DNA of 64,000 nt, from positions 1 to 64,000 of the IMG/VR virus record IMGVR_UViG_3300009702_000021, one strand, 5' to 3'. The notes below the pieces were generated by a model, which was given only the letters and a program-made list of their open reading frames with translations, was not told the DNA's origin and ran no database searches. This document shows, one piece after another, positions 6,861 to 61,716 of the stretch (position 1 is its first letter; each line of letters begins with the position of its first letter). Made by a program: the position numbers and the translations under genes. Origin of the DNA: a virus.

Positions 6861-6876
6861 GCTTGCGGTACCGCAA

Positions 6877-7461
6877 GTGGCCGGCTTCAGACTTAACACC
6901 AGACTCAAGGGAAGCAAGGTCGCCAGGAAGCGGTTCGCACAGGCCGTCCAGAACACGAGGAAGCGTCAGTGGCTAGTCGTCCGCCGGGCCGCCCTATTCA
7001 CCGAGAAGGAGCTGAAGAAGGGGATCAGGAGCGGAGCCCCGGGGGGAAAGAAGTTCAAGCCCCTGGCGCCGTCCACGCGGATTCTCAGGAAGGGACGCAA
7101 GCCCCTGATCGACACCGGCTCCCTGCTCCGGTCGATCAAGACCACGCTGATCAAAGCACGCCTCTCCGCGTTCGTCGGCGTTCACCGGACGACGGCCGGC
7201 GGCGCCTTCAACGTGGCCCTCGTCCACGAGTTTGGGTCAGCCCCATTCGTCATTCCGGTCACGCCCGCAGTGAGGCGCCTGTTCTGGTACTTGCACTTTG
7301 TCAGCAACGGGAAGATCTTGCCCCTGAGTCCGAGCAAGACCCAGATCATGCATCCGGGCGTTCCGGCGCGACCGTTCGTCCGCCCGACGATCCAAAAGAT
7401 TCAACCTCAACTTCATGGAGTCATGCTCAAGACGTTCGCTGAACGCGGTGGTCCTATCTGA
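6877..7461 (+). CDS. virion morphogenesis/neck protein (HK97 gp10- or Mu gpG-like)
   Basis: KPLIDTGSLLRSI, VHEFGS and HPGVPARPF.RP motifs; GTG start right after a palindrome. Confidence 0.75.
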   Translation: MAGFRLNTRLKGSKVARKRFAQAVQNTRKRQWLVVRRAALFTEKELKKGIRSGAPGGKKFKPLAPSTRILRKGRKPLIDTGSLLRSIKTTLIKARLSAFVGVHRTTAGGAFNVALVHEFGSAPFVIPVTPAVRRLFWYLHFVSNGKILPLSPSKTQIMHPGVPARPFVRPTIQKIQPQLHGVMLKTFAERGGPI

Positions 7462-7495
7462 TAACATCACAGTAAGCCCGGAGGCGAGCTAGATC

Positions 7496-8404
7496 ATGGT
7501 CGCTCCCACGGTAAACACGCTCACCCCAAACACCGGGTTTAGCCGGGGAGGAACGTGTGTCACCATCGACGGGGCCGACTTCCTGCTACCCTCTGCCGGC
7601 GGTACCGTGAAGGTGTACTTCAACGACGTCGAGGCAGTCGAGGGTGGTCCGGTTGATGACACGACGGTGCTAGTCCTCACCCCTCCGGGCATTCTCGGCG
7701 TCGTGGACGTCCGGGTTGAGAACGTGCCCGATACGGGGACAACAGAGCCGACGACCGTCGTAGGTGGATTCACCTATCAACTGCCACAGCTTGAGACCAA
7801 CCGTGACCTCGGGGTATCCGAGGACAGCGTGCTGCTCCTGGTCACACGGACGCTGATCAAGGAGTTCAGGCGAGCAGTTATCGCTAACACGCACCACGAC
7901 ATACACCCCGAGTACGTCGACGCTCTCAGCGCGAGCCAAGGCCAGGAGGTCCAGGCTGTTGCCCCGAACCTGAAGGTGATCGGACCCAACGTGTCCGAAG
8001 ATAGGTTCTACAGCCTCAACGGTCGCTTCAACATCGAGACCGTCCCTGGTTTCGACGTCTACGACCAGCCGGTCACCGTCAGGCTCGACTACGACTACGT
8101 TGGTGTCGGGAGGAGCAAAGGCGAGGCGTTCAACCTCTGGAGTGCGATCACCGCCTACCTCAACCGCAGCATCTTCCTCGAGGTGCCGAAGGACGGGCTC
8201 GACCCGGTCAACGGGGTCATTGCCTTCGAGCTGAACCCCACCTTCGACGAGCGTGCCAAGTTTAGGACGACCACGCGACAAGGGTTCCACCAGTTCACTG
8301 GCGCCCTGCACCTGCGCGGCGTCCATGCAGTTGCTAACCTTGTTTGTCCAGGCCGCCGCGTCGTAGACTGTGTCATCGTGACGGAGAAGTTGACCATCCC
8401 CTGA
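7496..8404 (+). CDS. IPT/TIG-domain tail terminator-like protein
   Basis: N-terminal PTV..LTP..G...GGT.VTI.G IPT motif; located just before the sheath gene. Confidence 0.6.
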   Translation: MVAPTVNTLTPNTGFSRGGTCVTIDGADFLLPSAGGTVKVYFNDVEAVEGGPVDDTTVLVLTPPGILGVVDVRVENVPDTGTTEPTTVVGGFTYQLPQLETNRDLGVSEDSVLLLVTRTLIKEFRRAVIANTHHDIHPEYVDALSASQGQEVQAVAPNLKVIGPNVSEDRFYSLNGRFNIETVPGFDVYDQPVTVRLDYDYVGVGRSKGEAFNLWSAITAYLNRSIFLEVPKDGLDPVNGVIAFELNPTFDERAKFRTTTRQGFHQFTGALHLRGVHAVANLVCPGRRVVDCVIVTEKLTIP

Positions 8405-8488
8405 CTGAGTTAGCGGTACCGCAAGCTCACAGCTTGATACCTCAAGCCGGCGTCTGCTAACATCCCGGCGTAGCACGGAGATCCCGAC

Positions 8489-8710: not shown

Positions 8711-8751
8711 TGTAAGCCCGAGCGTAGGACCCCAATACAGGAGGGAAACAC

Positions 8752-11528: not shown

Positions 11529-11594
11529 CCGCAGCCCGTAGGCTTGCGGTACCGCAACTGACCCGCTAGGACTGAACACAGTACAGGAGACTAC

Positions 11595-12093: not shown

Positions 12094-12175
12094 TTGCGGT
12101 ACCGCAAGGGTTGAGAGAACGGGGCCTGCCAAGTTAGAGCTGATTAGAGAAACCGAAACCGAAAGAGGGACGCAG

Positions 12176-13168: not shown

Positions 13169-15779
13169 ATGGCCCTGAATAATCTGGGCCTCATACCTCG
13201 GAATCGTCTTCACTGCATCTGACCTAGCGTCGAGCGTCATCCAGGGCCTCGGGAGGAACTTTCTCGGGCTCGACGACCAGGCGACCAGGTTGGCCGACAA
13301 GATGTCGAAGAAGCTGGGCATCAGCACGGATGCCCTCACGGCATCGATGAAGGGGCTCGCCTCCGGCCTTGCAATCGCCGCCTCAGGCATGGTCGGGCTC
13401 AGTGCGGCATTCGCTGCCGCGGACCCGGCAGGCGAGTTCGAGTTTAAGCTCGCTGGTATCCAGGCGATCCTCGGCGCTACGTCTAAAGAGATGCGGAACC
13501 TCGAGAGCGCCGCCCTCAAGGCCGGTATCGCTACCCAGTTCAGCCCACTCGAGGCCGCGAAGGGCCTCCAGATCCTGGCCCAGGCAGGCTTTGACGCCAA
13601 GGGATCGATCGAGAAGCTGAACCCTGTCCTCGACCTCGCCGCCGCTTCCCTGGGCCAGCTAGGGCTCCAGGAGTCTGGCGGGCTCGCAGTAGCGTCCATC
13701 AAGGCATTCGGGGACAAGCTGAGCGGCACTACAGAAGCGATGGACCTCTTGGTCAGGGCGACTACACGAAGCTCACTCCAGTTCCGCGAGCTTCCACTCG
13801 CGCTCGGTATCGCTACCCGCGGAGCCAAGCCGTTCAACGCATCGATGCAGGACACGCTAATCGCCCTCGGTGAGGTCCGAAACGTCATCCCCACCATCGA
13901 ACGCGGTGCAACTGCGGTGGCAGTCACGATGGAGCGCCTCGCTACCCCGACCACCAAGGCGTCTAAGGAGATGGAGCGACTGAAGCTCAAGGTCGCCGAT
14001 GCACAGGGCAAGTTCCGCCCCTTCCTGGACATCATTTCCGAACTTGCATTCAAACTCAAGGACATGAGCCAGCAGCAGCGCGCCGCGTCGCTCCAGATCC
14101 TGTTCGGTCGTCGTGCTGGGGCCGGAGCGATCGTTTTGCTGGACCAGATCACCAAGCGTGCTGAGATGGCCGGCGAAGGCATGGCTGGGTTCAGTAAGGC
14201 CATCGCCCTAATGCGCGGTGAGATGGCGAAGGCGTCCATCACCGCCAAGAGTTTCCGAGATAAACTGCTCGATACCTTCAAGGGCCAGAAGATCCTCCTG
14301 CGCGGCACCGTGGAGACTATCGCTATTGCTATCGGGAAGCCGTTCACGAAGGTCCTCAAGCCGGTCGTGCTTGGGATCACGCAGTCACTGAACTTCTTGC
14401 TGCGGCTATTCCTCGGGATCAATCCCGCAGTGAAGAAGTTCTTCGCTACCTTCTTCCTCGCTGCATCGGCTACTGCCGTAGTGGTCGGGCTGTTTCTGGC
14501 GATCTCAGCGCTCGCTGGTCTTATCGCCGGAACGCTTGCTACCACTATCGGAGGACTCCTGATCGCCTTCGGTCAGTTCCTGCTGATGGTCGGGTTGGTA
14601 GTAGGCGCCCTGTTTGCTCTCGAGGCTGCTTGGGACAACAACGTAGCCGGGATCAAGAGCGCATTCCTGCCTATCATCGAGAAGGTCATTCTCGCGTTCA
14701 AGGGCCTCGTGGCCCTAGTTACGAAGGGAGAGATTACTGGGATCCTGGCAGACCAGCTCTCAAAGCCAGAGAACAGTGGTCTGCTCGACTTCCTAGAAGG
14801 ATTCACCAGGATCTTCGCCGTCGTCAAGGCAATCGCGATGGGGATCTTTGGAGCCTTCCGAGACGCCTTTGACCGGATCGCAGTACGGTCAGCTCCGGTC
14901 TTTTTTCAACTCCGCAAGAGTTTGTCTCTGATCGGCAGCATTTTCCTCAAGCTCGGCAAGATCATCGGGAAGGTATTCGGGATCCAGATGACTGAGGACG
15001 GGATCGACTCCATCACCACGCTCGCCAACGTGATCACCAAGGTCTTGATCGAGCCATTCGTGTTCGGGCTAGAGATACTCATTGACCTGTTCTCGGCGCT
15101 GATAGCCATCATCAACGTCGTCCTAACGGTGGTCGACACGATCGCAGCTCCGTTTGTGTCGATTGCTGAGGTGATCGGTGGGGTATTCGAGACCGTCTTC
15201 GGGATCCTCACGCTCAACTTCAACACCCTATTCCAGGGGATCACGCGGATCATCAACGCCGTCGTAGGTATGGTCAACGCGACGGTCAGTGCACTCCAGA
15301 AGGTGGCCTTCGCCGCAGCCCCTACTCAGGCTGTGGCTAACTCAGCAGTGCAGTCGCTCGAGAAGCTGAAACTACAGCAGTTTCGTCCTGAACAGGTAGC
15401 CTTTGCATTCGGGGCAGACAAGACAGCTGCAAGCCTACGCCAGGAACGACTGAAGGCTGAGGCCGGTCCGCCGAAGCGTGCCACACTCAAGGCTTCACCG
15501 ACTGCGCCCCCAGATTCGACGGGAACGAACGCGAGTGCGGTACCGCAAAGTGTCCCGGCATCGACCCGCGGTGGAGGGTCAGCACTCAATAGAGTGGACA
15601 CCGCTAGGCTAATCGAGGCTGCTATCGCTGCCGGAGTGGTTTCTGAGCGCGGACGTCCCATCATCGTTGAGGGTGCAGTCACGCTAGATGGACGGCGCAT
15701 GGGCACCATGCGGGCTCAGCAGGAGCGCAACGCGCGGGCCAGACGTGGAGCGTTCAACCCCAGCTTGAGGGATGAGTAG
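13169..15779 (+). CDS. tape measure protein (TP901-like core); 5' end interrupted by a 7-nt insert at 13193-13199
   Basis: Strong SD GGAGGAGG before ATG 13169; TQFSP.EAA.GL..LAQAG core and hydrophobic amphipathic repeats; the long frame is +1 relative to the ATG. Confidence 0.9.
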
Positions 15780-16854: not shown

Positions 16855-18116
16855 CGGCACGCGACACGTCATCGCCTGGTTTCGTCATCACGGTCATCGC
16901 CGCGAATCCCGAACTGCGGATCGATGGCAAGACGGATCCGACTACGGTGGGCAAGATCCTCGAGAACATGGATGACGTCAATAAGAGGATTCTGTCGTTT
17001 ACCTACGAAGATGATGAGAAGGCCCACGATGTCCTGAAACTCAAGGTCGACAACCAAGACATGTACTTCATGGAGCATCCAGCCTGGATAAAGGGGAACC
17101 TCGTCCGTTTCTTCTTCGGGTACCCAGGAAGGATCTTCGGTCCGAAATACGTGGTCATCGACTCAGTTCAGGGGTTCCTTGAGCTTGACATCACCTGCGT
17201 AGAAGACGCTGCCCTCGCGAACATTTCCTACGTCCGTAAGTTTGAGAACTTCTCCATCGAAGACGTGATCCGTCGACTGATCGTCGATCGCTCATTCGGA
17301 CCTAACATCACGGCGTATTCGATTCCGAAGGACGACGCGCGCCTCCAGGAAAAGAAGACGTTCAGCCAGTCAAGGCAGTCCGACTGGCAGTTCCTCCAGC
17401 GTCTAGCCGAGCCACTGGGCTATGAGGTCTACATCGAGCACGAGATCCTTTTCTTTAAGCCCCGTGACTTCTCTGCAAGGCCAGACCGGAGCTACGAGTA
17501 CTGGTACGGGATCGGTGATCTGCTCAGCTTCGACATCAAGGAGTGGCGCGCTGCCGATCGTCCGGCTGAGACAGTCGTCGTTGGACGAAACCCGATCGAG
17601 CGCAAGACGATCTCCGCAACTGGTTCAAACACCAAGACCACCCGAGACACCCTCGGTAACCAGAACAGCGTCTCCATCAGAGCAGATCGTGCTGGTGCGC
17701 TCCAACGCCGACCCGCGGGTAAGACGGTCCACACCACGCCAGCTAAGACTCAGGGCGAGGCTAAGACTGAGGCCGATTCGCGGTACCGCAAACAGGAGCA
17801 GAAGGAGGTCGAGGCATCAGCTCGGATCATCGGAGACCCAGAGCTGAGGGCCAAGTCGATCATCAAGATCGTCGGGATCAGCCGGCAGCTATCTGGTCTC
17901 TACTACGTCAAGAAGCACGTCCACACGATCGACCGCTCAAACGGCTACACCGGGGACCTCTCACTGCTCCGTAATGCCGTCACGGCCATACCCACTACGA
18001 CGCCTCCGACTACGGACCCGACTAAGGCCACTGAGAACAAGAAGGATCCAGCAAAGACTAAGGAATTAGTCATCAGGGCCATCAAGTCTGGAAAGATAGT
18101 CCAGCAGCGTCAGTAG
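16851..18116 (+). CDS. baseplate hub / late control D protein
   Basis: QSDWQFL.RLA...GY, GDP.LRA and SG.YYV...H motifs. Confidence 0.85.
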   Translation: MTARDTSSPGFVITVIAANPELRIDGKTDPTTVGKILENMDDVNKRILSFTYEDDEKAHDVLKLKVDNQDMYFMEHPAWIKGNLVRFFFGYPGRIFGPKYVVIDSVQGFLELDITCVEDAALANISYVRKFENFSIEDVIRRLIVDRSFGPNITAYSIPKDDARLQEKKTFSQSRQSDWQFLQRLAEPLGYEVYIEHEILFFKPRDFSARPDRSYEYWYGIGDLLSFDIKEWRAADRPAETVVVGRNPIERKTISATGSNTKTTRDTLGNQNSVSIRADRAGALQRRPAGKTVHTTPAKTQGEAKTEADSRYRKQEQKEVEASARIIGDPELRAKSIIKIVGISRQLSGLYYVKKHVHTIDRSNGYTGDLSLLRNAVTAIPTTTPPTTDPTKATENKKDPAKTKELVIRAIKSGKIVQQRQ

Positions 18117-18249
18117 CAGCCCAGGAGGCCGTGAGAGAGCCCCGTGGTTCGTCTCAAATCCAAATCAGGTGTCCTAGGACCTATATCGGATCCATGACGA
18201 CTACAGGGCCTCAGAAGGCGTCAGGGTTGCGGTACCGCAAGGTCGAGAC

Positions 18250-21226: not shown

Positions 21227-21262
21227 GACTTGCGGTACCGCAAATCTCCTGAGGAGTAACCC

Positions 21263-24885: not shown

Positions 24886-25076
24886 TGAGTGAAGCTGAGA
24901 AGATCGCCAGAGCATTCCATGAGGCCTACGAGCGGCTTGCTCCTGCATACAGCTACAAGACCCGAAAGGCCAGTGCCGTAGACTGGCTTGATGTACCGGA
25001 GAACAACAGGGCCCTCATGGTGGCTACCGTTCAGGACCTCATCGACCGTGGTGATGTTGCGGTACCGCAAACATGA
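24885..25076 (+). CDS. small hypothetical protein
   Basis: TAATG coupling; IAR.FHEAYE.LAP motif; the palindrome forms its last codons. Confidence 0.55.
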   Translation: MSEAEKIARAFHEAYERLAPAYSYKTRKASAVDWLDVPENNRALMVATVQDLIDRGDVAVPQT

Positions 25077-27648: not shown

Positions 27649-27713
27649 GATCGCAGAGTGGGGCCTGAGTTTGCGGTACCGCAAACCGTTAGAGCACAGC
27701 AAAGGAGCACCTG

Positions 27714-29092: not shown

Positions 29093-29901
29093 TGCGAGTC
29101 GTCACCATCGCTCTGATCCTGGGCGTCCTGGTCCAGGGCTGCTGCAACCCCGATGTCAAGATGAACCTCAGCTACGGACCTATGTCGGAGAACACGTTCG
29201 ATGTCTACTCACCAGGCGAGTTCTGTCCTGGTCACGGCAAGTCGAACCGGCCGGCGATTATCGCAATCCATGGCGGGGCCTGGCGTAGCGGAGACAAGAG
29301 CTGGGGTGAGCGGGTCGCGGACCGGTTCACTCCGAACGGCTACGTGGTGTTCAGCATCAACTACCGGCTCGCGCCGGGATCACGCTGGCCCGCCCAGATC
29401 AACGACTGCGTGGCAGCCCTGCGCTACTTTCGCGGTACCGCAAACCTCTGGGGCATCGACCCGGACCGAATCGCCGCATTCGGGGTATCCGCCGGAGGCC
29501 ACCTAGCCGCCATGCTGGCGCTCCGTGGGCCAGACCGGGTGAATGTAGCAGTGACTGCTGATGGGGAGGGAGACCTGGCGGTATTCGGGAGAGCCCCAAT
29601 CATGGCCGACGAGACGTCGATCCTGGAGGACGTACTGGGGCCCCAGCCATTCACCCAGGCGGACCTCGTGTCACTGAGCCCAGTCCGCTACGTGCGGCCC
29701 GACGTGGCCCTCATGGTCATCCACTCAACAGGTGACCAGAACGTCTACTACGACCAGGGAGTACGCCTCCACGACGCCCTCCTGGAAGCCGGAGCAACGA
29801 CGGCGTTCGAGACCGTTAACGACGACTGCCACGGAAGGTGTTGGCGAGAGCCGAAGCCACTCCGGGCGATCAAGCGATTCCTAGCTGACAACCTGAATTA
29901 G
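29092..29901 (+). CDS. alpha/beta hydrolase (HSL-type esterase), probable lipoprotein
   Basis: HGGAW oxyanion motif, NYRLAP, GVSAGG nucleophile elbow; signal peptide ending VQGC. Confidence 0.9.
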   Translation: MRVVTIALILGVLVQGCCNPDVKMNLSYGPMSENTFDVYSPGEFCPGHGKSNRPAIIAIHGGAWRSGDKSWGERVADRFTPNGYVVFSINYRLAPGSRWPAQINDCVAALRYFRGTANLWGIDPDRIAAFGVSAGGHLAAMLALRGPDRVNVAVTADGEGDLAVFGRAPIMADETSILEDVLGPQPFTQADLVSLSPVRYVRPDVALMVIHSTGDQNVYYDQGVRLHDALLEAGATTAFETVNDDCHGRCWREPKPLRAIKRFLADNLN

Positions 29902-35003: not shown

Positions 35004-38000
35004 ATGGGAAAGAAACGCACTTGGTTCCCACACTTCCACGTCCATGACGAGCACTCGATCAAGGACGGCTGCTCGACCGTCGAGACCTACGCCGACCTGG
35101 TAGTTGAGTCAGGCGGAGACTGCCTAGCGATCACGAATCACGGGCAGGCAGCCGGGTTCGCGCGCCAGTACTTCGCCTGCCGTGACCGAAAGATCAAGCC
35201 CGTCTTCGGCATGGAGGCCTACGTCAACGAGTGGAGGACTCGCCCGATCAAGAGGCTCCAGGAGGAGCTGAAGAAGGCCGAGAAGGCTGCCAAGAAGTCG
35301 CCAGCCAGGCTCTCACAGATCAAGGCCAAGCAGGAGTCCCTCAAGCGGTTCATTGCTGAGCGGTTCCGGCCAAGCCCACATGCGATCATCCTCGCTAAGA
35401 ACCGGGTCGGCTACCAGAACCTCGTTCGCATGAGCACGGACAGCTACCAGCACGGCTTCTACTATGTGCCGCGGACCGACACCAAGTTCCTCTCCGAGCA
35501 CCGCGAGGGGCTGATCTACAGCACAGCCTGCATCGGTGGCTACATCCCCAGGATGGCCCGGGTAGACTTCGCCGCTGCGTGCGAGGAGGCTCGTCGGCTC
35601 AAGGCGATCTTCGAGGACGGCGGAGGTGGCTTCTACGTCGAGCTGATGATCACCGAGTACGAAGCACAGCGTGAGACCAACGAGGTCATGATCCGGCTCG
35701 CCACCGAGATCGGCGCCAAGTGCATCCTGACCTGCGACGTCCACTACGCGAAGCCCGACGACGGGCAGGCGCAGAACGTCCTCCTGCTGATGCGGGACAA
35801 GAAGACGATAGCCGACCGGGAGGCCGGCGAGGGAGTCTGGCAGTTCGAGGCTAAGGACCTCTGGTGGAGGACGGTCCAGGACGTGGTCCAGTGCTGGAGG
35901 GAGAACCACTCGGACTACATGGACCGGAGCTGTTTCCAGGCTGCCCTCAAGAACACCCTTGCCCTGGCAGACGAGATCGAGGACGTCGAGTTCGATACGA
36001 GCCTCAAGCTACCTGGGGTCTTCAAGGAGCCAGATCACGACCTCAAGGAGCTGGTCAAGTCGGGCTTGCGGTACCGCAAGGAGCACGGGCAGCTAGCGCC
36101 GGGAGTCAAGCTCTCGGAGTACACCGATCGGATCAAGCGTGAACTATCGGTCATCAGCCCCAAGGGGTTCAGCGAGTACTTCCTGATCCTGCACGACGTC
36201 TGCCGGGCAGCCCGGGAGATGGGAGCCCGCATGGGCCCGGGCCGCGGTAGTGCCGGCGGATCCCTGACGGCCTACCTCTGTCGGATAACCGAGATTGATC
36301 CGCTCAGGTTCGGACTCCTGTTCGAGCGGTTCCTCGATGCCGGCCGCGATGACCCACCGGACATTGACCTCGATTTCTCCCCGGAACACCGAGACGGCAT
36401 CAAGGCCTATGTCGAGAAGGCCTACCCGGCAACTGCAACGATCGGGTCCAACGCTACATTCAAGCCGCGCGCCACGCTCCAGGACGTCGGCCGGGTCTTC
36501 GGGATCGACTACCGGGAGATGCAGCAGATAACCAAGCCCCTGGGTACCGAAGCTGATGACATGACGTGGGATGAAATCTTCGAGGCCTGGCCGGCCGTTG
36601 AGAGGTTTGCTGACGACCACCCGGAGGCGTGGAGCGTCGTCCGGGTCCTCCGGGGGCTCATCAGCCACCGCGGCAAGAATGCTGCCGGGATGCTCATCGC
36701 TCCGGCCTCAGCCCTCAACGACGTCCCGATGATCATGGAGACGGACAGCAAGGGCAACAAGATGACCGTGACAGCATTTGCGGACAGCCAGGGAGACGGA
36801 GTCGAGCACAAGGGGCGGGAGCTGACTCGACTCGGCTACCTAAAGGCCGACCTGCTCGGTGTCCGAAACCTGAACATCGCGCCGCAAGCAGTCGAGATCG
36901 TAGCGCGGGATACTGGGCAGGAGATCGACCTAGAGTCACTCTCCCTCGACGACGAGGAGACGCTCCAGACTGCGGCAACGGGAGACGTCCCAGGGGCCTT
37001 CCAGCTCGACACCAACACGACGCGACCGATCCTCCGTCACGTCGGGGTAGATAGCTTCGCTGACCTAGTCATGATTACTGCCCTCTGCCGACCAGGTCCC
37101 CTCAAGAATCAGATTCATCGTGAGTTCGCCAAACTCAAGCGCAGCGATGCATGGGAGGACGATGTACTGCCAGAACTAAGGGAGCTGCTCCGGGACAGCC
37201 GCGGACTCATGGTCCTCCAGGAGGACGTCATGTGGGTCGTGCAGGTAGTCAGCGGCATGTCGATGCAGGAGGCCAACATGCTCCGAAAGATCATGTCGAA
37301 GAAGCAACCTGAGGCGATGAAGCAGTGGAAGGAGAGGTTCGTTGAGGGAGGCAAGGAGGTAGGGCTCGCCACGGAAGAGGAGCTGGTCGAGCTGTGGGAC
37401 AAGATCAAGACCTTTGCCGGCTACGGGTTCAATAAATGTGTATGTTATAATCAGCCCATCACCGTGAGGCGGACTTGCGGTACCGCAAAGGAGACTGATC
37501 GTGGGCAAGAGTACACCAACGAAGTGCGCGTGTGGGGCGGTGTTCCCGAAGAAGAAGTTGTGGGTGGACCACAAGAGGACGTGCAGTCCACACAAGGAGA
37601 TAGTCAAACAGGCCCGGCTGTCCAACCTCGCCAAGGCCAATGCACCGGATGCGAGGGAGAGGGCGCGAAAGACTTTCCTGATGAGGGATTACGAGGTAAC
37701 CGAGGCCCAGAGAGATGCTCGAAGGAAGAATGCCCGCAAGCACCTCACGCCGTGGGCGCAGAGCGAGGATGGCAGGAGGGTGTCTTCCGAGACAGCCAAG
37801 AAAACGTCAGCGAGGAAGGATGTCAAGCAGGCGAGGGCGAAGCGCATGAAAGAGTGGGTGCGAAACAATCCAGGAGTGATCGCTCGGACAGGTCAGCGTG
37901 CAGCGGCACTGGCCATCGACGGAGCAGGGGAGCTGGAGTTAGCAGAACTTCTTCACAATCTGAATGTAGTCAGACAGGAAGTGGTAGAGGTCGTACCGGG

Positions 38001-40550: not shown

Positions 40551-40876
40551 GCAAGCCGATGTTTCAGAAAAGGGATCTCGACCTCATCCGAGCCGCGACC
40601 TGGGGCTGCTGGGACGCGGTGAAGACCAAAGACCACCTCGGGGACGCGGCTAGGAAGCGAGGTCTCGTAGCCAGGACCGCGACCGGTGATGCCCACGAGA
40701 CAGCCTTCAAGTGGGCCCGGCAGGAGCAGAGGGCCCACGATCTGCTTGCGGTACCGCAACCCATCAACGGGACCCTGCGGGATTACATCGCCTGCACCTG
40801 CTCCTACGACGAGAGTGAGGAGATGACGCGCCATGCTCCGCTATGCTCGATCACCAAGGCGGGGATCAACTGGTGA
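40547..40876 (+). CDS. hypothetical protein
   Basis: SD GGAGG, TTG start overlapping the upstream stop. Confidence 0.5.
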   Translation: MSKPMFQKRDLDLIRAATWGCWDAVKTKDHLGDAARKRGLVARTATGDAHETAFKWARQEQRAHDLLAVPQPINGTLRDYIACTCSYDESEEMTRHAPLCSITKAGINW

Positions 40877-43955: not shown

Positions 43956-44040
43956 CCGACTAGCGGTACCGCAAAAAGTTTTGCGACGGAACGACGGACT
44001 ACCACGTTCGTTAGGTCGGGCTCGAGCTAGCGACATCGAA

Positions 44041-46126: not shown

Positions 46127-46166
46127 GCCTTGCGGTACCGCAAACCCCCCAACCCCTGAGGAGACG

Positions 46167-48517: not shown

Positions 48518-49159
48518 ATGGTGAAGCCCACTGAGCCCCGCCTGACCCTCGACGTCGTCCCGGCCACCTGCCACTACAGCAACCTCCGCACGGAGCTGCC
48601 CCGGCAGTCCTGGAACCGGCTCAGGGCGAAGGCTTACTTCCGTGCCCGTTACCGCTGCGAGGTCTGTGGAGGCCGTGGTCCGGAACACCCCGTTGAGGCC
48701 CACGAACAGTGGGCCTACGAGATACCGGACGACCACAGCCAGATGCCTACACAGCGGCTCACTGGCATCATCGCGCTCTGCCCGGACTGCCACGAGGTCA
48801 AGCACTACGGGCTCGCCCAGGTCCGCGGCCGGGAGGCCGAGGCCCTCGCTTACCTCTGCCGGGTCAACGGCTACACGGACATCCAGGCCGAGGAGGCGAT
48901 CTATCTCGAGGCGATGGTCTACCGCGCCAGGTCGACCCTGCTCTGGCGGTTGGACGTCTCACTGATCCTTGAGATGGGGGAGAGCGAGCTGTATGTCCAG
49001 GAGGTCATGGACCGGCGGGACGCCAAGAACGCAGTCGTCGCCGCTGAGCATGTCCAGGACCTCGACGCGTTCATCCAGATCGCCCGTGAGATCCTTGCGG
49101 TACCGCCAACCCCGGAACCTGAACCTGAGGATTCGACGGACGGATTTAAGTGGGTCTGA
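48518..49159 (+). CDS. HNH-type endonuclease
   Basis: CEVCG...EAHE.W...LCPDCH.VKH motif. Confidence 0.75.
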   Translation: MVKPTEPRLTLDVVPATCHYSNLRTELPRQSWNRLRAKAYFRARYRCEVCGGRGPEHPVEAHEQWAYEIPDDHSQMPTQRLTGIIALCPDCHEVKHYGLAQVRGREAEALAYLCRVNGYTDIQAEEAIYLEAMVYRARSTLLWRLDVSLILEMGESELYVQEVMDRRDAKNAVVAAEHVQDLDAFIQIAREILAVPPTPEPEPEDSTDGFKWV

Positions 49160-49320: not shown

Positions 49321-52300
49321 ATGAGCAAGAGCAGGTTGACCCCGGTCCTGAAGGGCCTCAACCCCATAGAGAAGTCGAGAGTTGAGACCTGGGTGCCCAC
49401 GGACCGGGAGGGCCTGGTCGTTCGGGTCAGGGATCCCGGACCCGGTGAGGGGATCCCGGTCACCCTGATCGAGGACCTGACTGAGGTAGAGGTCCACGAC
49501 GAGACATCCGGTGCGTGGATCCGGGGCCGCGCCGCAGCACAGACTACCCCTGGCTGGCCCGTCACGCTGATCAAGGCCGTCGAGAGGATCCGCGCCGAGG
49601 CCGAGCGAGCCATGGTCTGCCCGGAGTGCGACAGCTACCTGATCCTCCGGGACCGGGACCTAGAGTGCGCGGAGTGCGGACTGTGCATGAACCCCGACTG
49701 CCCGAACTGCGGAGGCCGGACGGCCTTGCGGTACCGCAAGCTCAAGGGCCAGCCAGCCGACATCCCTCCGGCATTCTGGGCGTGCCGGGATGATGCCTGC
49801 GCCTCTGCGCTCCTGTGGGGCCAGCGAGACCCTCAACCACAGCAGGTCCCGGATAAGCCGTGGACGGAGCACGGGGAGAGGGAGGAGCAGATCGCGGAGG
49901 CGCGTGAGGTCCTAGATCACCCGCTGGTCTCGGAAGCCAATGCGGTCAAGAAGCTGCGAGTGATCCTCGACGAGAACCCCGACCGGGTCCTGCCACTGGT
50001 CCTCGGGGAGACCACGCCCTCAGGCAAGAAGACGGTCCAAGCCAGGCTCGAGGAAAAGCTGGCTGAGGAGCGCCGGCAGGGCAAGCCACGACGCCGGGTC
50101 AAGAGGCGTGCCCAGAAGGCACGCCGGGTCCAGCCCGGGGAGAAGCGTGAGGGTATCAAGTACTACGGCCCCGAGGACTCATTGCCTGGTCCGTCCGGGA
50201 CGTCCCTGGTCGAGGTCCCTGAGGACGATGAGACCTCCGTGGCGTCGTCTGTCTACCCACACCACCGGCTAGCTCATGCAGCGCTGAACCCGATCCAGTC
50301 GCGCGTCCTCGATGTCTATGACCGGAACTGCAACGTGGTGATCGCCGCCAGCACCAGTGCTGGTAAGACCCTCAGCGCTGAGATGGTCATGGGTGACGCC
50401 CTCGACCGCGGCGCCAAAGCGATCTTCCTCGCGCCGCTCCGGGCCGTCAGCCAGGAGAAGTACGACGACTGGTGCGATGAGGACCACCCGTGGTCAGAAC
50501 TAGGGGTCGAAATCTGCACGGGTGACTACACGATGAGCCAGGCGAAGCGGAAGGCCCTGCGCCGCGCCGACGTGATCGTGATGACATCTGAGATGCTCGA
50601 CTCCAAGACGCGTCGGATGGGGAGCGACGAGAACGGCTGGCTGATGGAGACACTCTGCGTGGTCGGCTCCTCCGGGATTGCACTTGCGGACGGGACTACG
50701 AAGACAATCAAGGAGATCGTGGAGGAGCGTCTCGAGATTGAGGTCTTAGCTTTCAATCACTCGATTGGGAAAGTCGTCAAGCGCAGGGTGACGGGATGGC
50801 ACAAGAACCGGTTAGGAGACAGGAATCTCGTTGAGATCACTTGCGGTACCGCAAGTCTGACCTGCACCGAAGATCATGAGATATACCAGCGAGGCGTGGG
50901 GTATACTGCTGCCAGGAAGCTCACATCTTCGAGCACGCTGGAGGTGCTGGATGCCGGTCAAGAAGGGACACAGATTCGGCGCGAAGCGCACGGTCGAGCT
51001 GACGGACATAGAGCGATCGGTTGTCATAGGGACACTGCTCGGAGACAGCTCACTATCGTGGGGAACAGGGAACCGGGTAAGTGCCAGAATGCGTGTGAGG
51101 AACAGCCTCGCACAGCGGGAGTTCGTGTTGTGGAAGTACGAGATGCTTCGGCGTCTTGTGCGGACTCCTCCGAAGGAGGCGCCGAATCGTGGATACAAGC
51201 GCGACGGAATGGCATTCGGATTTTCCACGAGGTCCTTCGGAGAGGACCTACTCAAGATCAAACAATTGATCGAACCCGGGAAGACGGTGACGCGCGATCT
51301 GCTGGACTTGTTGACGGAGCCAGAGGGACTGGCCGCGTGGTACATGGACGACGGATCGAGGTCGAGGGGGGCGAGTCTCGTACTACATACACAGTCAATG
51401 ACTGCCGACGAGGTGCGGTTGACGTCGCGTTGGCTCAGGGAGGAGTGGAATATCGAGACCAGGCCGATGTCGGTCAAGAACAGAGCCTACGAGGTGCTAC
51501 GTATTCCGGCGGAATCAGGCGAGCGGTTTATGGATATCGTGAGACCATTCGTGACCGGGATAACATGCATGGAGCACAAGGTATTGCACAGGAGAGAGTC
51601 GCTGTTCTGCACGATGTGCGGCACAGGGTTCGAGGCAACGAGGCGTCAGATCCAGCGCGAGACGAGACTTGTCACCTGCCGGTCCGAGGACTGCATGAGG
51701 GCCCTAGCCCGTATGATTCAGAGACTGAACGACGCGAGGATCGGTTCGTCTACGACCTAACCGTCGAGGGTGAGCACAACTACTTCGCCGAGGGAGTCCT
51801 GGTCCACAACTGCGTGGTCGTTGACGAGGCTCACCTGCTAACGATGAAGGACCGCGGCGACGCCTTGGAGTGCGGACTCGAGCGATTCACTCGGTTCAAC
51901 CCCCACGCTAGGATCGTCCTCCTCAGCGCGACCATGCCGAACGTCCATGAGCTAGGGTCCTGGCTGACCCGCCTGAACGGGAAGCCGACCCGCCTTGTCC
52001 AGAGCGCGTGGCGTCCCACCAAGCTGACCGTTCACCCCGTGCCGTACGACCACCAGACGTCGGGTTACAGCTACCACAAGAACGAGGACTCCAAGCGGGC
52101 TAAGGCGATCGAGCTGCTCCAGAAGTACAGCGAGGACAAGTGGATCGTCTTCGTCCACACGAAGAAGATGGGCCACGCCCTGCTGGCCCAGCTACGGGAC
52201 CGGCACGAGCCAGCCGAATTCCATAGCGCTGACCTCACCCGAGACAACAGGCTCCGGCTCGAGGACCGGTTCAGGCACGGAGACCTCAGGGTCGTCGTAG

Positions 52301-53391: not shown

Positions 53392-53402
53392 GGATTTTAG
53401 GG

Positions 53403-53431: not shown

Positions 53432-53459
53432 CTGACTAGATTAGAGTTAGAGGTGAGCT

Positions 53460-53717
53460 ATGGCAAAGAAGCGAATCAAGCGACCGAACAACCCCGCTGG
53501 GGATGCGGTACCGCAAACTCCGACCATCATAGTCAATGACCCTACGTCCTCGGTTGACTTTAGCCGTGACGCTAAGGGGCAGCCCCGTTGGACCATCAAG
53601 GTCTATGGGGATGCTGACCAGATGGACGAGGTCCTCGATGAGGTCCTCCGGCTCGACCGGGAGCTACTCCGCCGCACCACCATCGGGGAACAGAGAGAGG
53701 ACCCCGACGATGAGTAA
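53460..53717 (+). CDS. hypothetical protein
   Basis: SD GAGGT; first gene after promoter copy 3. Confidence 0.6.
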   Translation: MAKKRIKRPNNPAGDAVPQTPTIIVNDPTSSVDFSRDAKGQPRWTIKVYGDADQMDEVLDEVLRLDRELLRRTTIGEQREDPDDE

Positions 53718-54162
53718 GAACAGGATCAGACGGCGCAAGAAGGCTCGGAGAAAGCGCCCACAGGATCGCTCGAGTGGTAGTCCCGAGGGGTTGACCATGG
53801 ATGAGATGCTGAACCGGATCAACGAGGCCAAGGACCCGACGTGGATGACGACTGATGAGGTCAGGCACGTCTTCAACGACTGCCACGTCGTCACGGTCTA
53901 CAAGATGAACGCCCGGAAGGAGTTGACTCCCTACAGGAGGAGGTCAACGGGACCGTCCAATTACTACAGGCGCGATCAGGTCGAGAGCGCCGTTAGGCGC
54001 CGGTTCCAGCTGGTCCAGGCAAGCAGCGACAGCACAGGGAGTGATGATGGGGCAGTCTACGAGACGGGCGTCCTTCGGGGAGCCAGGGGTCGTCCTCGCA
54101 AGAGCCAGAACGACGACACGAAGCCGCGCCGGAAGGCCAAGCGACGGAACAAGCCCAGGTGA
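53710..54162 (+). CDS. excisionase/MerR-like helix-turn-helix protein
   Basis: WMTTDEV......VTVYK....EL......YYRRDQVE motif. Confidence 0.7.
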   Translation: MSKNRIRRRKKARRKRPQDRSSGSPEGLTMDEMLNRINEAKDPTWMTTDEVRHVFNDCHVVTVYKMNARKELTPYRRRSTGPSNYYRRDQVESAVRRRFQLVQASSDSTGSDDGAVYETGVLRGARGRPRKSQNDDTKPRRKAKRRNKPR

Positions 54163-56668: not shown

Positions 56669-56702
56669 CCTTGCGGTACCGCTAACAGCAAAGGAGCCAG
56701 AG

Positions 56703-57551: not shown

Positions 57552-57588
57552 CCTGACCTTGCGGTACCGCAAAGTGAAGGAGGTTGAA

Positions 57589-58449: not shown

Positions 58450-59106
58450 GTGGCAGGACGAGTCAGGAAGCGTAAGCAGCAGAAACTATATGTCGGAGTC
58501 GACCCGGGAAAAGAGGGGTTTATCTGCGCCGTTGACCACCGCTGTCACATCAGAGTCATGTGGTCGATTCCCTACGCCGGGAAGCAGATCGATGAGGTCC
58601 TGTTGGCGAAGATGATCATCGCGCTGGTCAAGTCCGGGGCCCAGGTGTTCTTCTTGGAGCACCAGCAGCCGCACGCGAAGGAAGGCGCGGTCGGGGCCCA
58701 CAGCGGTGGGACTGCCTACGGCGCCCTGAGGATGGCCTGTGCCATGGCCGGGATCCTGGGCAAGGTGCCCTACGAGATCCTCCGGCCGGAGGACTGGAAG
58801 CGCAGGGCGAAGATCCCGGTGCCATCCGTCCCGAAGGCTAAGCTGCCGCCGGAGCCGGAGAAGACTAAGAAGGCCGACCACCGACGCTGGAAGAAGGAGG
58901 TTGAGAAGATCAAGGCCAAGCGGAGCCGGGAGGTTAAGAAAAGGCGGAAGGCCCACAGTATCGCGATGGCCGAGCGCCTCCAGCCGCACTATGACTTCTA
59001 CAAGACCGCGAGGTCGAAGGGACCACACGACGGCAAGTGCGAATCGTTCTTGCTGGCGAGAGAGGCCTGGAAGCAGGCCCGAGGGATTAGAGACGATGCC
59101 ACCTAA
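58450..59106 (+). CDS. RuvC-like Holliday junction resolvase
   Basis: VGVDPG..G, FLE, P..WK and DG..ES.LLA motifs. Confidence 0.8.
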   Translation: MAGRVRKRKQQKLYVGVDPGKEGFICAVDHRCHIRVMWSIPYAGKQIDEVLLAKMIIALVKSGAQVFFLEHQQPHAKEGAVGAHSGGTAYGALRMACAMAGILGKVPYEILRPEDWKRRAKIPVPSVPKAKLPPEPEKTKKADHRRWKKEVEKIKAKRSREVKKRRKAHSIAMAERLQPHYDFYKTARSKGPHDGKCESFLLAREAWKQARGIRDDAT

Positions 59107-61339
59107 GACAAAGAAGAAGGCCAAGCGGAAGGCCAAGCCGACCGCGAAGAAGCAGCAGCGCGCCGCGGTCAAGAAGGCCGCCAAGCAGGACTCCGGCGGG
59201 ACCCTCGCAGAGCGCCGCGCGAAGATCCGGGAGCGCTATGACCGACAAGTAGTGGTCTACGCCGATGACCCGCCAGCAGAGTTTGCACCGATTGACTTCG
59301 TCATGCTTGCCCGGCTGCTCGGTGGAGGGATCAAGCAGGGTGCAGTGGTCGAGATCGCGGGCTGGGAGGACTCAGGGAAGATGCAGCACGTTGACGAGCC
59401 TGTCTTGACTCCGACTGGCTGGAAGAGGATCGGCGACCTCGTGATCGGCGACCTCGTGATCGGAGCGGACGGGAAGCCCACCCCCGTTGATGGCGTGTTC
59501 CCACAGGGGGTCCTCGAGTCCTACGAAGTGACGTTCTCAGACGGAGCGAAGACTGAGTGTGGAGACGAGCACCTGTGGCTCACCAGGACCATGCTGGACC
59601 GTGAGAGGGGCACTCCTGGCTCGGTGAAGACCCTCTCGGACATTCGTAGGACCATCAGGCGCGGCCGGAATCCCAACCACTCGATCCCCCTGGTGTCCCC
59701 GGTCGAGTTTGCGGTACCTCAAGACCTCCCGATTGACCCGTATACCCTGGGCCTCCTGATCGGGGACGGGAGCATCATCGGGTCCAGTGTCGTCCTCCAT
59801 AACCCAGAGAGGGATGTCGTCGATCGGTTTGAGTCAGGTCTCCCCTACGGTGACCTGACCAGCCCCTACGAGTCTCCAGGTAAGTGCCTGGCTACGAGAG
59901 TCAGGAGCCCAGTGATGTCTGCCTCGTCAGCTACGGCAGAGGCCCTGCGGGACCTGGGGCTAGCTGGGTGTCGCTCCTACGAGAAGTTCATTCCCGAACC
60001 CTATCGGTTCGCCTCGATTGAGGACCGTCGCAACCTGCTCCTTGGGCTCATGGACACGGACGGGACGGTCGACAAGCCGGGTCAGCCGTCGGTGTCCTAC
60101 TCGACATCATCGGAGCGTCTCGCGGACGACGTCGCCTTCCTGGTGCGTTCACTGGGTGGTATCGCCCGGACGACGAGCAGGATTCCGCGCTACAAGTACA
60201 GGGGCCTGCTCAAGAATGGCCGGAGGACCTATCGGATTTCGATTCAATTCCCCTGTGGGTGGTGCCCGGTGTCGAGCGAGAAGCACGTCTCTCGCTGGAG
60301 CCCACCGAGGCTGATCAAGCACCGGAGCATCGTCGGGGTCCGTGCTGTCGGGGCTAAGGAGAGTGTCTGCATCAGCGTTGCTGCACCTGACGGGCTCTAC
60401 GTGACTCGCGACTTTATCGTCACCCACAACACGTCTCTAGTGGTTGCTATCGCGGGGATGATCCAGCGCGCTGCACCGGAGGGTAAGAAGCACGTTGTCA
60501 TGGTCAACTTCGAGATCGTCGAGGACCGCGTCTGGTGGGCCACGCTCGGGCTCCAGACCGATGACGACCACTTCACCATGATCGCCAACGTCCCTCTCGA
60601 GGAGGGGATCGGGGCCCTCGCTGACCTGATCCGGTCCGGGGAGGTCTGCTGTGCCATCGTGGACTCGGTCTACGCCGCGTCATCACGGGCGAATGACGAG
60701 CTTCTCAACAACTGGGCGGACCCGAAGGGCAAGCAGGGTGGCGGAGGAGGGATCGGTGTCGAGGCCCGCCAGTGGGGCGTAGCCTGGACTGCCATGAAGG
60801 GCCTGTTCACCGAGTTCGGCGTGATCTGCCTGGCGGTCAATCAGGTCAGGATCAAGATCGAGATGGGAGGTGGGGGTAAGAAGTCGTATGGGCCTCCGCC
60901 GACCACGACGCCGCGGGGCAGCGCGCTCAAGTTCTACGCCTGGATTCGGCTCGAGCTGACCGGACGGCTCCTGGTCGACGACAAGAACAAGAAGCGCACC
61001 GACGTCGACGGCCGGCAGATCAGGATCCGGGTCATCAAGAACAAGACCTCGGGCGACCAGCGCGGGCTCTGCCACTACGACCTCATCCGCGGTCAGGGAT
61101 TCGACCTCACGAACGAGCTGATTGAGCTTGCCAAGGAGGCAGGTGCGATCCGTCAGAAGGGCGGCTGGTACTACATCGGGAAGGCCACCAAGGTCCAGGG
61201 CGCGGCGAAGCTGCGCGCGTGGGTCGAGGCCGAGCCCCGGCGCCGGGATGTCCTCCGGCAGGTCGTCAAGAGGTATCTGAGTAAGGTCGATGACGACGAG
61301 CTGTTTGAGGAGGTCAACCTCGATGCCGATGACGAGTAG
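59096..61339 (+). CDS. recA: RecA recombinase containing an intein
   Basis: LGGGI..G.VVEI.G.EDSGK|T, IVDSV, NQVR.KI, TP.G.ALKFYA and KNK motifs. Confidence 0.93.
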   Translation: MPPKTKKKAKRKAKPTAKKQQRAAVKKAAKQDSGGTLAERRAKIRERYDRQVVVYADDPPAEFAPIDFVMLARLLGGGIKQGAVVEIAGWEDSGKMQHVDEPVLTPTGWKRIGDLVIGDLVIGADGKPTPVDGVFPQGVLESYEVTFSDGAKTECGDEHLWLTRTMLDRERGTPGSVKTLSDIRRTIRRGRNPNHSIPLVSPVEFAVPQDLPIDPYTLGLLIGDGSIIGSSVVLHNPERDVVDRFESGLPYGDLTSPYESPGKCLATRVRSPVMSASSATAEALRDLGLAGCRSYEKFIPEPYRFASIEDRRNLLLGLMDTDGTVDKPGQPSVSYSTSSERLADDVAFLVRSLGGIARTTSRIPRYKYRGLLKNGRRTYRISIQFPCGWCPVSSEKHVSRWSPPRLIKHRSIVGVRAVGAKESVCISVAAPDGLYVTRDFIVTHNTSLVVAIAGMIQRAAPEGKKHVVMVNFEIVEDRVWWATLGLQTDDDHFTMIANVPLEEGIGALADLIRSGEVCCAIVDSVYAASSRANDELLNNWADPKGKQGGGGGIGVEARQWGVAWTAMKGLFTEFGVICLAVNQVRIKIEMGGGGKKSYGPPPTTTPRGSALKFYAWIRLELTGRLLVDDKNKKRTDVDGRQIRIRVIKNKTSGDQRGLCHYDLIRGQGFDLTNELIELAKEAGAIRQKGGWYYIGKATKVQGAAKLRAWVEAEPRRRDVLRQVVKRYLSKVDDDELFEEVNLDADDE
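59381..60430 (+). mobile_element. class 3 intein (350 aa) with a LAGLIDADG endonuclease, in the RecA P-loop
   Basis: Starts MQHVDEPVLTP.GW; EHLW; LGLLIGDG; LLGLMDTDG; VCISV; ends IVTHN|T. Confidence 0.92.
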
Positions 61340-61388
61340 GGCGCCGTCCTAGGCATTGAGGTTATAGGAACGGCAGTGGTAACCTCTA

Positions 61389-61679
61389 GTGGTGATTAGT
61401 CCGCACATCAGATTCGACGTCAGGATCAGCGCTCGCCTGTGGCGAAAGTGGCTGAAGGCCAACCCGCAATTTATCCAGGTCGGGAGGGCCCATGACCCGG
61501 ACCAGACTGAGGCGGCTGCGATCCTCGAATCGTTGTTGGCAACGATCCTGACGAGTGACCTACTGAAGGTACATCGCACTCCTCTAACCGATACGAGCAC
61601 GGCCCTCATGCTGGCGGTCGGTCACGTCGAGGTAACCGAGGAAGGCCTAGTCAAGGATCAGGATCCTGAGGAGAGCTAG
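61389..61679 (+). CDS. hypothetical protein
   Basis: Only plausible + strand ORF in this gap; weak SD. Confidence 0.45.
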   Translation: MVISPHIRFDVRISARLWRKWLKANPQFIQVGRAHDPDQTEAAAILESLLATILTSDLLKVHRTPLTDTSTALMLAVGHVEVTEEGLVKDQDPEES

Positions 61680-61716
61680 GTCGGGCTTGCGGTACCGCAA
61701 GCCCGACCTAGCTCTC
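61671..61716. repeat. 46-bp perfect palindrome centred on the 14-bp motif
   Basis: GAGAGCTAGGTCGGGCTTGCGGT|ACCGCAAGCCCGACCTAGCTCTC. Confidence 0.95.

Follow-up and report, generated by a model that had tools for sequence, protein, structure and literature searches.

Known DNA-binding arrays of the ParB family use palindromes of 13–14 bp, as in the cases of Noc and KorB. Noc of Bacillus, a ParB paralogue with a membrane-binding N-terminal helix, needs no ParA; its Noc-binding sites (NBS), each a 14-bp palindrome, are scattered over the chromosome in large number. The OB operator of plasmid RK2, which is recognized by KorB, is a short palindrome found at a dozen places around a replicon of 60 kb. 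KorB itself was described as a CTP-dependent sliding clamp of the ParB family that acts at kilobase distance from its OB operators (PMC11790492). In phages, Cluster O mycobacteriophages, i.e., Corndog and its relatives, carry a 17-bp palindrome in 34 copies in about 70 kb, or about one copy per 2 kb (PMC4351075). In the published account of this repeat, a dimeric DNA-binding protein was inferred and a role in transcription initiation was thought unlikely, and the repeat was given no assigned function (PMC4351075). In the Cluster O phages, genome-wide palindrome arrays have been known since 2015 without an assigned function or binder. Here, a stretch of 64,000 nucleotides (positions 1 to 64,000 of the IMG/VR virus record IMGVR_UViG_3300009702_000021; hereafter the window) was analyzed with regard to a 14-bp palindrome, TTGCGGTACCGCAA, that recurs along the DNA of an uncultured myovirus. 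The closest precedent of this array is the 17-bp palindrome of the Cluster O phages.

The window comprises bases 1–64,000 of a viral contig of 83,007 bp (G000) with a CheckV completeness of 45%. It contains 16 perfect and 9 one-mismatch copies of TTGCGGTACCGCAA, the same number at the same coordinates as counted by eye in the preliminary description of this DNA; dinucleotide shuffles (n = 100) let expect 0.01. In the whole contig, 21 perfect and 11 one-mismatch copies were found, i.e., 32 sites. When the contig was shuffled such that every protein, the codon usage and the composition of each intergenic stretch were held, 300 runs yielded on average 0.02 exact sites and 0.32 sites at the one-mismatch level, as compared to the 32 sites observed with at most one mismatch.

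The phage is a myovirus, as evident from genes for tail sheath, baseplate and tape measure. A second contig of 46 kb (G001), which stems from a different metagenome, overlaps the contig at either end at the protein level and supplies the part missing from it, namely ThyX, the large terminase TerL, portal, protease, capsid, two TET-associated glycosyltransferases, a SPASM protein and two short ParB_N proteins. G001 carries 15 exact and 6 one-mismatch sites. One of its proteins (P0001, of the HTH family described below) is also found on a contig of 126,176 bp, which matches the summed size of the two pieces. Since G001 with its 21 sites fills the part missing from the contig, the whole genome of about 126 kb holds roughly 55–60 sites. 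Comparison of 12 kb of the window with GenBank phages by megablast gave no match, and the tail sheath is nearest to those of Streptomyces BRock-like phages and of Bacillus phage BCD7 (27–29% identity). Among sequencing data sets, a single DNA set, a subsurface metagenome that is the probable origin of the phage, and no RNA set were found to contain it.

The motif is an 18-bp dyad, G-Y-TTGCGGTACCGCAA-R-C. The base at −2 is G and that at +2 is C in 17 of the 32 sites each; further out, the flanks have G or A at −3 and C or T at +3. As proposed in the preliminary description, the mismatches fall mostly in the outer positions. Eight of the nine single mismatches in the window are located at position 1, 2 or 13 and the remaining one at position 11, and with G000 and G001 pooled, 21 of 31 mismatched positions are 1, 2, 13 or 14. 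At the center, GTAC, GCGC and, for the sister lineage described below, ATAT occur, each of them self-complementary. The symmetric variant TTGCGGCGCCGCAA is present in two copies in the contig (31495 and 73520). Regarding three weaker variants listed earlier, the copy at 31495 is real, whereas that at 30228 is a half-site with three mismatches and nothing was found at 7587 with up to three mismatches. A dyad extending to ±2, with every center variant being palindromic, fits the earlier proposal of an operator-like site for a symmetric dimer, and the perfect dyad likewise bears out the distinction made there from asymmetric stoperators.

The array is far more even than expected by chance. For the 34 sites in the contig (up to two mismatches), the coefficient of variation (CV) of the gaps was 0.43, as compared to 1.04 ± 0.16 for a null model in which intergenic and coding sites were placed randomly in unchanged numbers, so that the intergenic preference was kept. 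None of 20,000 simulations reached a value this low. The largest internal gap between these sites is 3827 bp, compared to a median of 9693 bp in the null model. Within the window, gaps between sites with at most one mismatch range from 449 to 4326 bp, i.e., the 0.45–4.3 kb reported before. Two variant sites spaced by just 17 bp (67563 and 67580) are an exception to the even spacing. Even spacing points to a process along the DNA rather than at particular genes.

About 18 of the 34 sites are intergenic or at gene boundaries in a contig with 11% non-coding DNA (binomial 2.6e-9). The remaining sites lie inside open reading frames (ORFs) in all three codon phases, including the ORF 35004–39644 and the helicase and RecA genes. 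Thus, the presence of sites in ORFs in all three frames was confirmed using heuristic gene calls, with about half of the sites being intergenic. Seven sites of the window follow a stop codon by 2–7 nt (6863, 8411, 21230, 43961, 46130, 56671 and 61687), and three are located in or at intein sequences (37475, 50841 and 59709). Sites inside long genes would be needed if no stretch may exceed about 4 kb without a site.

Almost all genes are on the plus strand, and one direction prevails over about 118 kb. This arrangement could suit silencing by roadblocks according to the logic of stoperators, with a repressor bound every few kilobases that halts transcription across a quiescent genome in a lysogenic or carrier state, since such blocks would limit read-through to at most about 4 kb. 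One site (22072 in G001) is located upstream of terL, where the genes diverge, and dispersed repressor sites are known in P1. They are also described for Cluster A mycobacteriophages, but these stoperators are asymmetric and oriented (PMC4351075), whereas the sites here are symmetric. Neither an integrase nor ParA was present among the annotated or searched genes, although no search aimed at integrases was made. Moreover, the phage brings its own set of genes for replication and recombination (DnaB, primase, helicase and RecA; several of them split by inteins), which suggests a lytic life. Roadblock silencing is, thus, quite unlikely.

In order to describe the array in relatives, IMG/VR was scanned for the exact 14-mer. 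The scan returned 83 stretches, and all multi-copy contigs (G001–G005 and L058) share proteins with G000 or G001; the single-copy contigs L071 and L008 are likewise kin. The site-masked flanks of 16 sites of relatives were mappable in 8 cases, and 6 of these 8 coincide with a site of G000 or G001, with flanks being 65–76% identical. A JGI contig of 3865 bp (Ga0206129_10030249; L306) carries three perfect sites and one one-mismatch site at 72% G+C. Thus, the motif is retained over widely differing base compositions.

Among 80 TerL-related loci, the closest outgroup (57% TerL identity) is a sister lineage represented by G006 and G010, both from the same metagenome. While close relatives have the same 14-mer, the sister lineage has a different word: its palindrome GT-TTGGGATATCCCAA-AC, of which 78 kb contain 15 copies, deviates from TTGCGGTACCGCAA by two bases in each half-site. 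As a cross-check, the sister contigs were found to be without TTGCGGTACCGCAA and the clade contigs to be without the sister motif. G010 is syntenic with bases 1–53,000 of the contig, with 40–69% protein identity, and orthologous positions carry the word of their own lineage. This holds past the same stop codon (6863 as compared to 11936 in G010) and ahead of the same start codon (751 in G001 as compared to 2961 in G010). In ORF 31812–34550, the peptide L-R-Y-R is encoded by TTG CGG TAC CGC here, but by TTG CGA TAT CGC in G010 (TTGCGATATCGCAA, L-R-Y-R-K). The switch at 33756 comprises the synonymous changes CGG>CGA and TAC>TAT and comes as near to the sister motif as the protein permits. As judged from the aligned genes, this synonymous switch within L-R-Y-R is the strongest evidence for selection on a lineage-specific DNA word. 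Since the 14-mer is kept amid diverged flanks and switches synonymously between the lineages, selection acts on a symmetric, lineage-dependent DNA site, in agreement with the earlier claim that it acts on the DNA rather than on the protein.

The relatives also bear on whether the palindrome could be a host-derived or defense word, such as an uptake, Chi-like or HIP1-like sequence or a by-product of restriction at GGTACC. GGTACC, a KpnI-type sequence, is the core of the motif, and just 9 of its 39 occurrences in contig G000 are outside CGGTACCG. However, the word of the sister lineage lacks GGTACC, and Chi-type signals are asymmetric. A scan of 185,579 prokaryote species genomes (one genome per species; stretches of up to 8 kb) returned at least 120 stretches; the 80 matches listed had a single site each and came from unrelated taxa, as expected by chance, which is weak evidence against a host-wide word. 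A host or defense word is very improbable.

Many of the sites are found in the short space that separates a stop codon from the following ribosome-binding site (RBS), where the transcribed palindrome might form a hairpin for RNA processing, stability, termination or translational control. A fold is possible (−4.3 kcal/mol, or −6.8 kcal/mol with a C–G extension), and 4 of 68 sites are part of longer perfect palindromes. On the other hand, the loop is self-complementary in every variant, which a hairpin would not require but a protein of two-fold symmetry on duplex DNA would; single mismatches are uncompensated, and 39 of the 68 sites lack extra pairing at ±1 although ±2 is symmetric, the commonest bases at ±1 (C and A) being unable to pair. 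No U-tract follows the sites, and no terminator-like or promoter-like match coincided with a site in the 40–60 kb region. In addition, sites are present in the oppositely transcribed block of G001, and about half of all sites are within genes. An RNA element, therefore, is hardly to be expected. Because the centers are self-complementary, mismatches uncompensated, the fold weak and terminators or promoters not coincident, the site is read as a putative duplex DNA target of a dimer.

A promoter reading was rejected since no consistent −10 element was seen by eye 17 bp past TTGCGG. Sigma-70-like matches were not enriched in the 40–60 kb region (3 as compared to 2.2 expected). The best of these, TAGACA-17-TATACT (10/12; 53403–53431), lies in the same gap as site 53503.

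On balance, the array probably consists of binding sites for one symmetric (dimeric) protein encoded by the phage. Selection would keep the sites throughout the genome, and in this lineage would space them evenly at one per 2–3 kb, with available gaps between genes used and coding sequence or inteins used in long genes. By analogy to Noc with NBS and KorB with OB, the sites may serve as loading or nucleation points that give the protein reach over the whole chromosome, rather than as operators of individual genes. A nucleation array is preferred over operators because of the even spacing, the coding and intein sites in long genes and the lack of a link to promoters.

Three candidate readers of the palindrome were considered. 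The first is the orphan ParB-like protein of 457 aa encoded at 54744–56117. It matches phrog_3264 (E 2e-14), and its best profile matches in the PDB are to Noc (7nfu, E 2e-7; 7ol9), covering the N-domain and the helix-turn-helix (HTH). Thus, the earlier annotation as ParB stands as far as a Noc/ParB-family protein with HTH is concerned, but no link to the motif was found. IMG/VR scans returned no relatives of this protein, which is no guide to its rarity and possibly due to its low-complexity N-terminus; a word-based protein search among the 8000 candidates sharing most words yielded three relatives. ParA, searched via AAA_31 (PF13614), was absent from all four contigs tested (G000, G001, G006 and G010), with 14 of 14 controls being positive. 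The AAA_5 protein encoded at 44141–45457 was considered as ParA and rejected as not ParA-like. In tblastn searches of GenBank phages, neither the ParB-like protein nor the HTH family member P0001 nor the double winged-helix protein described below gave a match. The ParB-like protein is a plausible candidate reader, if somewhat short of a probable one.

The second candidate is a sigma-r4/ArsR-like HTH protein of 312–328 aa encoded by G001 (L209:10269–11255, minus strand), i.e., outside contig G000. Its family comprises 435 cluster representatives at E ≤ 1e-3. The proteins start with a basic N-terminus, followed by an HTH of the sigma-r4/ArsR type, a helical middle part and a long disordered tail; they end in a short conserved peptide, which reads A-M-G-F/Y-E in several members. 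The G001 gene contains four perfect sites at spacings of 60, 60 and 69 bp in the part coding for the disordered tail, each of them read as L/F-A-V-P-Q. In addition, its N-terminal AVPQ corresponds to the symmetric variant CTGCGGTACCGCAG, and symmetric variants are present at and upstream of its 5′ end. The in-frame peptide AVPQ was found 21 times in 13 of 168 family members scanned and was confined to the tail or the N-terminus, and both AVPQ of the L306 member are perfect sites. In the sister lineage, a site of the sister type is located 116 bp past the stop codon of the HTH gene. This gene copy is cut by the contig end, and a search for its full-length version yielded only relatives with 50–66% identity. 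Family-alignment scans of IMG/VR and JGI returned only G001, G006 and two short contigs. The peptides GISQ, LGYP and WDIP, as encoded by the sister palindrome, were absent from the 168 family proteins.

Profile searches of the HTH family against the PDB gave weak matches to MarR/ArsR/LuxR HTH domains, and Atlas leads were sigma-r4, ECF and HTH_23 at 0.92–0.93. PHROG matches of 80 members were weak and mixed (sigma factor, 8; unnamed family, 13; small terminase, 3), and neither a sigma-factor nor a small-terminase identity was accepted. The HTH family has the strongest physical link to the motif and is at least as well linked to it as the ParB-like protein. As reader of the palindrome, the HTH protein is put forward tentatively as a possible candidate.

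The build of the HTH protein resembles that of small terminases, and a role of the array in DNA packaging would follow if it were small-terminase-like: the four-site cluster would be pac, and the dispersed copies would mark the DNA or re-initiate headful packaging. Inside small-terminase genes, pac sites are known from P22 and SPP1. No other small-terminase candidate is present beside TerL in G001, only an opposite-strand block of 7.5 kb separates the HTH gene from TerL, 8 kb away, and the three small-terminase matches among the 80 members point in the same direction. However, more members match sigma-factor PHROGs or the unnamed family, the HTH gene lies apart from TerL in both lineages, some 55 additional pac sites would expose concatemers to internal cuts, and even spacing would have no obvious role. 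Packaging is an unlikely explanation.

The third candidate is the double winged-helix protein encoded at 45614–46126. The earlier description of an HTH protein at 45614 was supported, as two winged-helix domains were found, whereas Pfam and PHROG scans of 53638–54162 gave no match for the HTH protein claimed at 53710. The 45614–46126 protein aligns end to end with a syntenic G010 protein of 133 aa (25% identity, E 8e-4). A site of the sister type lies 117 nt past the stop codon of the G010 gene in a region that is otherwise non-homologous. Further leads for the 45614–46126 protein were generic winged-HTH only. It is a rather improbable reader, and a similarly small share of the probability falls to something other than the three candidates.

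A number of observations weigh against such an array of binding sites or against one of its candidate readers. The first 6862 bases of the contig are without a site, and gene calls were made by a heuristic based on GC3 (G+C at third codon positions) and ribosome-binding sites and are approximate. The dyad shows a mild asymmetry, with −1 being mostly C (21 of 32) and +1 mostly A (18 of 32), which is inseparable from strand composition. In the sister lineage, the sites are few and irregularly spaced, with a largest gap of 18.6 kb, so that coverage of the whole chromosome is not a conserved property or need. Thus, of the earlier claim that the phage marks its whole chromosome, the even lattice was found here, but coverage is not conserved in the sister lineage. 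With respect to the reader, the ParB-like protein missed the Pfam threshold for ParB_N, and Pfam assigned only DUF7343 (winged HTH). GERR is the motif of CTP-binding ParBs, and the alignment shows G-L-R/H-R at this box. The sites nearest to the ParB-like gene are 53503 and 56671, with none inside, and the tandem cluster of four sites is in the HTH gene, not in the ParB-like gene. The sister contigs G006 and G010 do not extend over the ParB-like region. For the HTH protein, the recognition helix S-x-I-R-x-D-L-K is near-invariant across members with 37–70% identity, which is a poor fit with a switch in specificity, although the sister lineage contributes only a truncated copy.

The part of the genome supplied by G001 includes a putative hypermodification cluster (L208:16253–19944, minus strand) beside TerL (L209:46–1974). 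The cluster encodes a ParB-like protein of 305 aa, the two TET-associated glycosyltransferases and the SPASM-domain protein. A third ParB_N protein of G001 (233 aa) is encoded directly ahead of the portal gene.

These genes beside TerL and portal, comprising two TET-associated glycosyltransferases, the SPASM gene and two short ParB_N proteins, raise the possibility that the sites mark or guide DNA hypermodification, either by loading a ParB-type clamp that brings thymine or cytosine modification enzymes or as modified targets themselves. Phage pathways with 5-methylpyrimidine dioxygenases are described as having such a neighborhood, and a part of them requires a ParB-like activator without a DNA-binding domain (PMC13229309). 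Even spacing would suit a sliding factor of limited range. However, the enzymes covered in that publication prefer three bases and not 14-bp sites (PMC13229309), no methyltransferase was present among the genes scanned, and nothing ties the Noc-like protein to the modification genes. A Tet_JBP search of the four contigs gave no match, but was uninformative since the control genomes were silent, too. Hypermodification as the function of the sites is distinctly improbable.

A more far-reaching variant of the nucleation array would be that the lattice is a self-address, i.e., that it loads a Noc/ParB-like clamp which reaches all phage DNA and no host DNA and directs a genome-wide activity. The clamp would slide a kilobase or two in each direction. 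As a best guess, the activity would be post-replicative thymine hypermodification encoded beside TerL, with glycosyltransferases and short ParB activators lacking a DNA-binding domain as the set involved; protection or compaction would be alternatives. The palindrome switch would then be a changed address that separates co-infecting relatives. This proposal is speculative and has a low probability.

The coordinates of the sites in the window and of the two candidate readers encoded there are given in Table 1.

Table 1. Palindromic sites and candidate reader genes in the 64,000-nt window.
Feature	Position	Strand	Context
Perfect site	6863..6876		2 nt past stop of ORF 6351–6860; orthologous position 11936 of G010 is TTGGGATATCCCAA
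1-mismatch site (TAGCGG...)	8411..8424		6 nt past stop 8404
Perfect site, intergenic	11544..11557		15 nt past stop 11528, 37 nt ahead of start 11595; position shared with relative G005
Perfect site, intergenic	12094..12107		43 nt past stop 12050; position shared with relative G005
1-mismatch site	15535..15548		Within tape-measure ORF 13290–15779
1-mismatch site	17778..17791		Within tail-protein ORF 16851–18116
Perfect site	18227..18240		9 nt ahead of start 18250
Perfect site	21230..21243		3 nt past stop 21226, 19 nt ahead of start 21263; position shared with relative G003
Perfect site	25057..25070		Between stop 24885 and start 25186; small ORF there doubtful
Perfect site	27671..27684		22 nt past stop 27648, 29 nt ahead of start 27714
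1-mismatch site	29430..29443		Probably within ORF 29041–29901
Symmetric 2-change variant TTGCGGCGCCGCAA	31495..31508		Within ORF 31207–31815
Perfect site	33756..33769		Within ORF 31812–34550; reads L-R-Y-R-N
Perfect site	36066..36079		Within ORF 35004–39644 (1546 aa)
Perfect site	37475..37488		Within ORF 35004–39644; abuts Shine–Dalgarno sequence (SD) of out-of-frame ORF 37501–38322
Perfect site	40746..40759		Within ORF 40547–40876
1-mismatch site	43961..43974		5 nt past primase stop 43955
Double winged-helix candidate reader, 170 aa	45614..46126	+	Pfam HTH_20 E 3e-5; HVO_A0261_N weak
Perfect site	46130..46143		3 nt past stop of double winged-helix gene, 23 nt ahead of start 46167
1-mismatch site	49095..49108		Within HNH endonuclease ORF 48518–49159
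Perfect site	49726..49739		Within DEAD-box helicase ORF 49291–53391
Perfect site	50841..50854		Within intein of helicase ORF
1-mismatch site	53503..53516		In 246-bp gap 53392–53637
Orphan Noc/ParB-like candidate reader, 457 aa	54744..56117	+	Acidic/basic N-terminal extension, ParB N-domain, HTH, C-terminal domain
1-mismatch site	56671..56684		2 nt past stop 56668, 18 nt ahead of start 56703
Perfect site	57559..57572		46 nt past stop 57512; then SD-like AAGGAGG
1-mismatch site (position 11)	59709..59722		Within intein-bearing RecA ORF 58739–61339
Perfect site	61687..61700		7 nt past stop 61679; center of 46-bp perfect palindrome 61671–61716

The 46-bp palindrome at the end of this list is one site with 16 extra paired bases per side. 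Intein or homing-endonuclease domains were noted in the DnaB-like gene (40843–43302), the DEAD-helicase gene (49291–53391), the RecA gene (58739–61339) and the portal gene of G001 (L208:10964–14356). Downstream of the window, the contig encodes an HU/IHF-family protein (67245–67593, i.e., L432:3245–3593; Bac_DNA_binding, E 3e-28). A GC-rich hairpin and then two asymmetric copies of TTGCGATACCGCAA, 17 bp apart, were observed after the HU/IHF-family gene and directly before the next RBS.

For 74 of the 80 TerL-related loci, a palindrome search gave nothing above the thresholds. The distant TerL relatives L270/G007, L278/G008 and L290/G009 carry another palindrome, AACGGCCGTT (frequently GGAAACGGCCGTTTCC), with 35 copies in 40 kb, 17 in 44 kb and 7 in 11 kb. 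These arrays are not evenly spaced (CV of 1.18 and 0.95), and several copies adjoin a reverse-strand RBS; they are regarded as a separate matter.

As compared to the arrays known so far, the clade offers three new handles: statistically even spacing; a natural switch in specificity between sister lineages, even in the form of synonymous changes; and a short list of candidates, among them an orphan ParB of the Noc-like kind and an uncharacterized HTH family of wide distribution. If the ParB-like protein were the reader, phages would use ParB clamps without partition. If the reader belonged to the HTH family, a large family of phage proteins would gain a DNA target.

Centromere-like systems differ from the array in several respects. 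The repeats of sopC of F and the centromere repeats of N15 are tandem direct repeats, each including a short inverted repeat to which a ParB-type protein binds, and N15 scatters them. The four sites at about 60-bp spacing in relative G001 are similar to these repeats, but F and N15 have ParA (SopA), and here the cluster falls within the tail-coding part of an HTH gene, while the dispersed copies number dozens, not four. ParABS systems have a few parS sites clustered close to parB or to the origin, whereas 32 sites are dispersed over 83 kb here, none of them in the parB-like gene. The C1 operators of P1 and the stoperators of Cluster A phages resemble the array in that tens of copies of a repressor site are found inside and between genes. 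Stoperators are, however, asymmetric and oriented with transcription according to the Cluster O paper (PMC4351075), as compared to a perfect dyad here, and no sign of temperate life was found.

Dispersed ParB-family arrays share with the present one a perfect palindrome of 13–16 bp at many dispersed places. KorB has the ParA partner IncC and the clamp-locking partners KorA and TrbA, whereas ParA was absent from the four contigs here and no KorA-like partner was identified; moreover, the present array has fivefold the number of sites and a regular spacing. Among proteins of solved structure, Noc came out nearest to the 457-aa protein in the profile search, with the match covering N-domain and HTH. 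This match is distant, the 457-aa protein departs from GERR at that box, the palindrome bears no resemblance in sequence to the Noc site, and the density of sites is about 20-fold above that of NBS.

With regard to the Cluster O phages, kinship was not detected in GenBank phages by megablast with 12 kb of the window or by tblastn with the three candidate readers. They are siphoviruses of Mycobacterium, unlike the uncultured myovirus described here, and their repeat has another sequence with 7-bp arms around a 3-bp spacer (PMC4351075). The account of the repeat in that paper contains no report of even spacing, of a motif switch between lineages or of tandem sites in a regulator gene (PMC4351075). 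The Cluster O repeat was absent from the hosts checked there (PMC4351075), while for the phage described here, the single-site matches listed from the genome scan are weak evidence of such absence. However, the two arrays are alike in having more than 30 copies of a dyad with invariant inverted repeats, located both in intergenic gaps and in coding sequence (PMC4351075). Cluster O phages also encode an orphan protein with a ParB-like domain (gp90), an AAA ATPase and glycosyltransferases (PMC4351075). Finally, as described for Cluster O (PMC4351075), the positions of the sites are mostly common to relatives, and single changes account for sites gained or lost.

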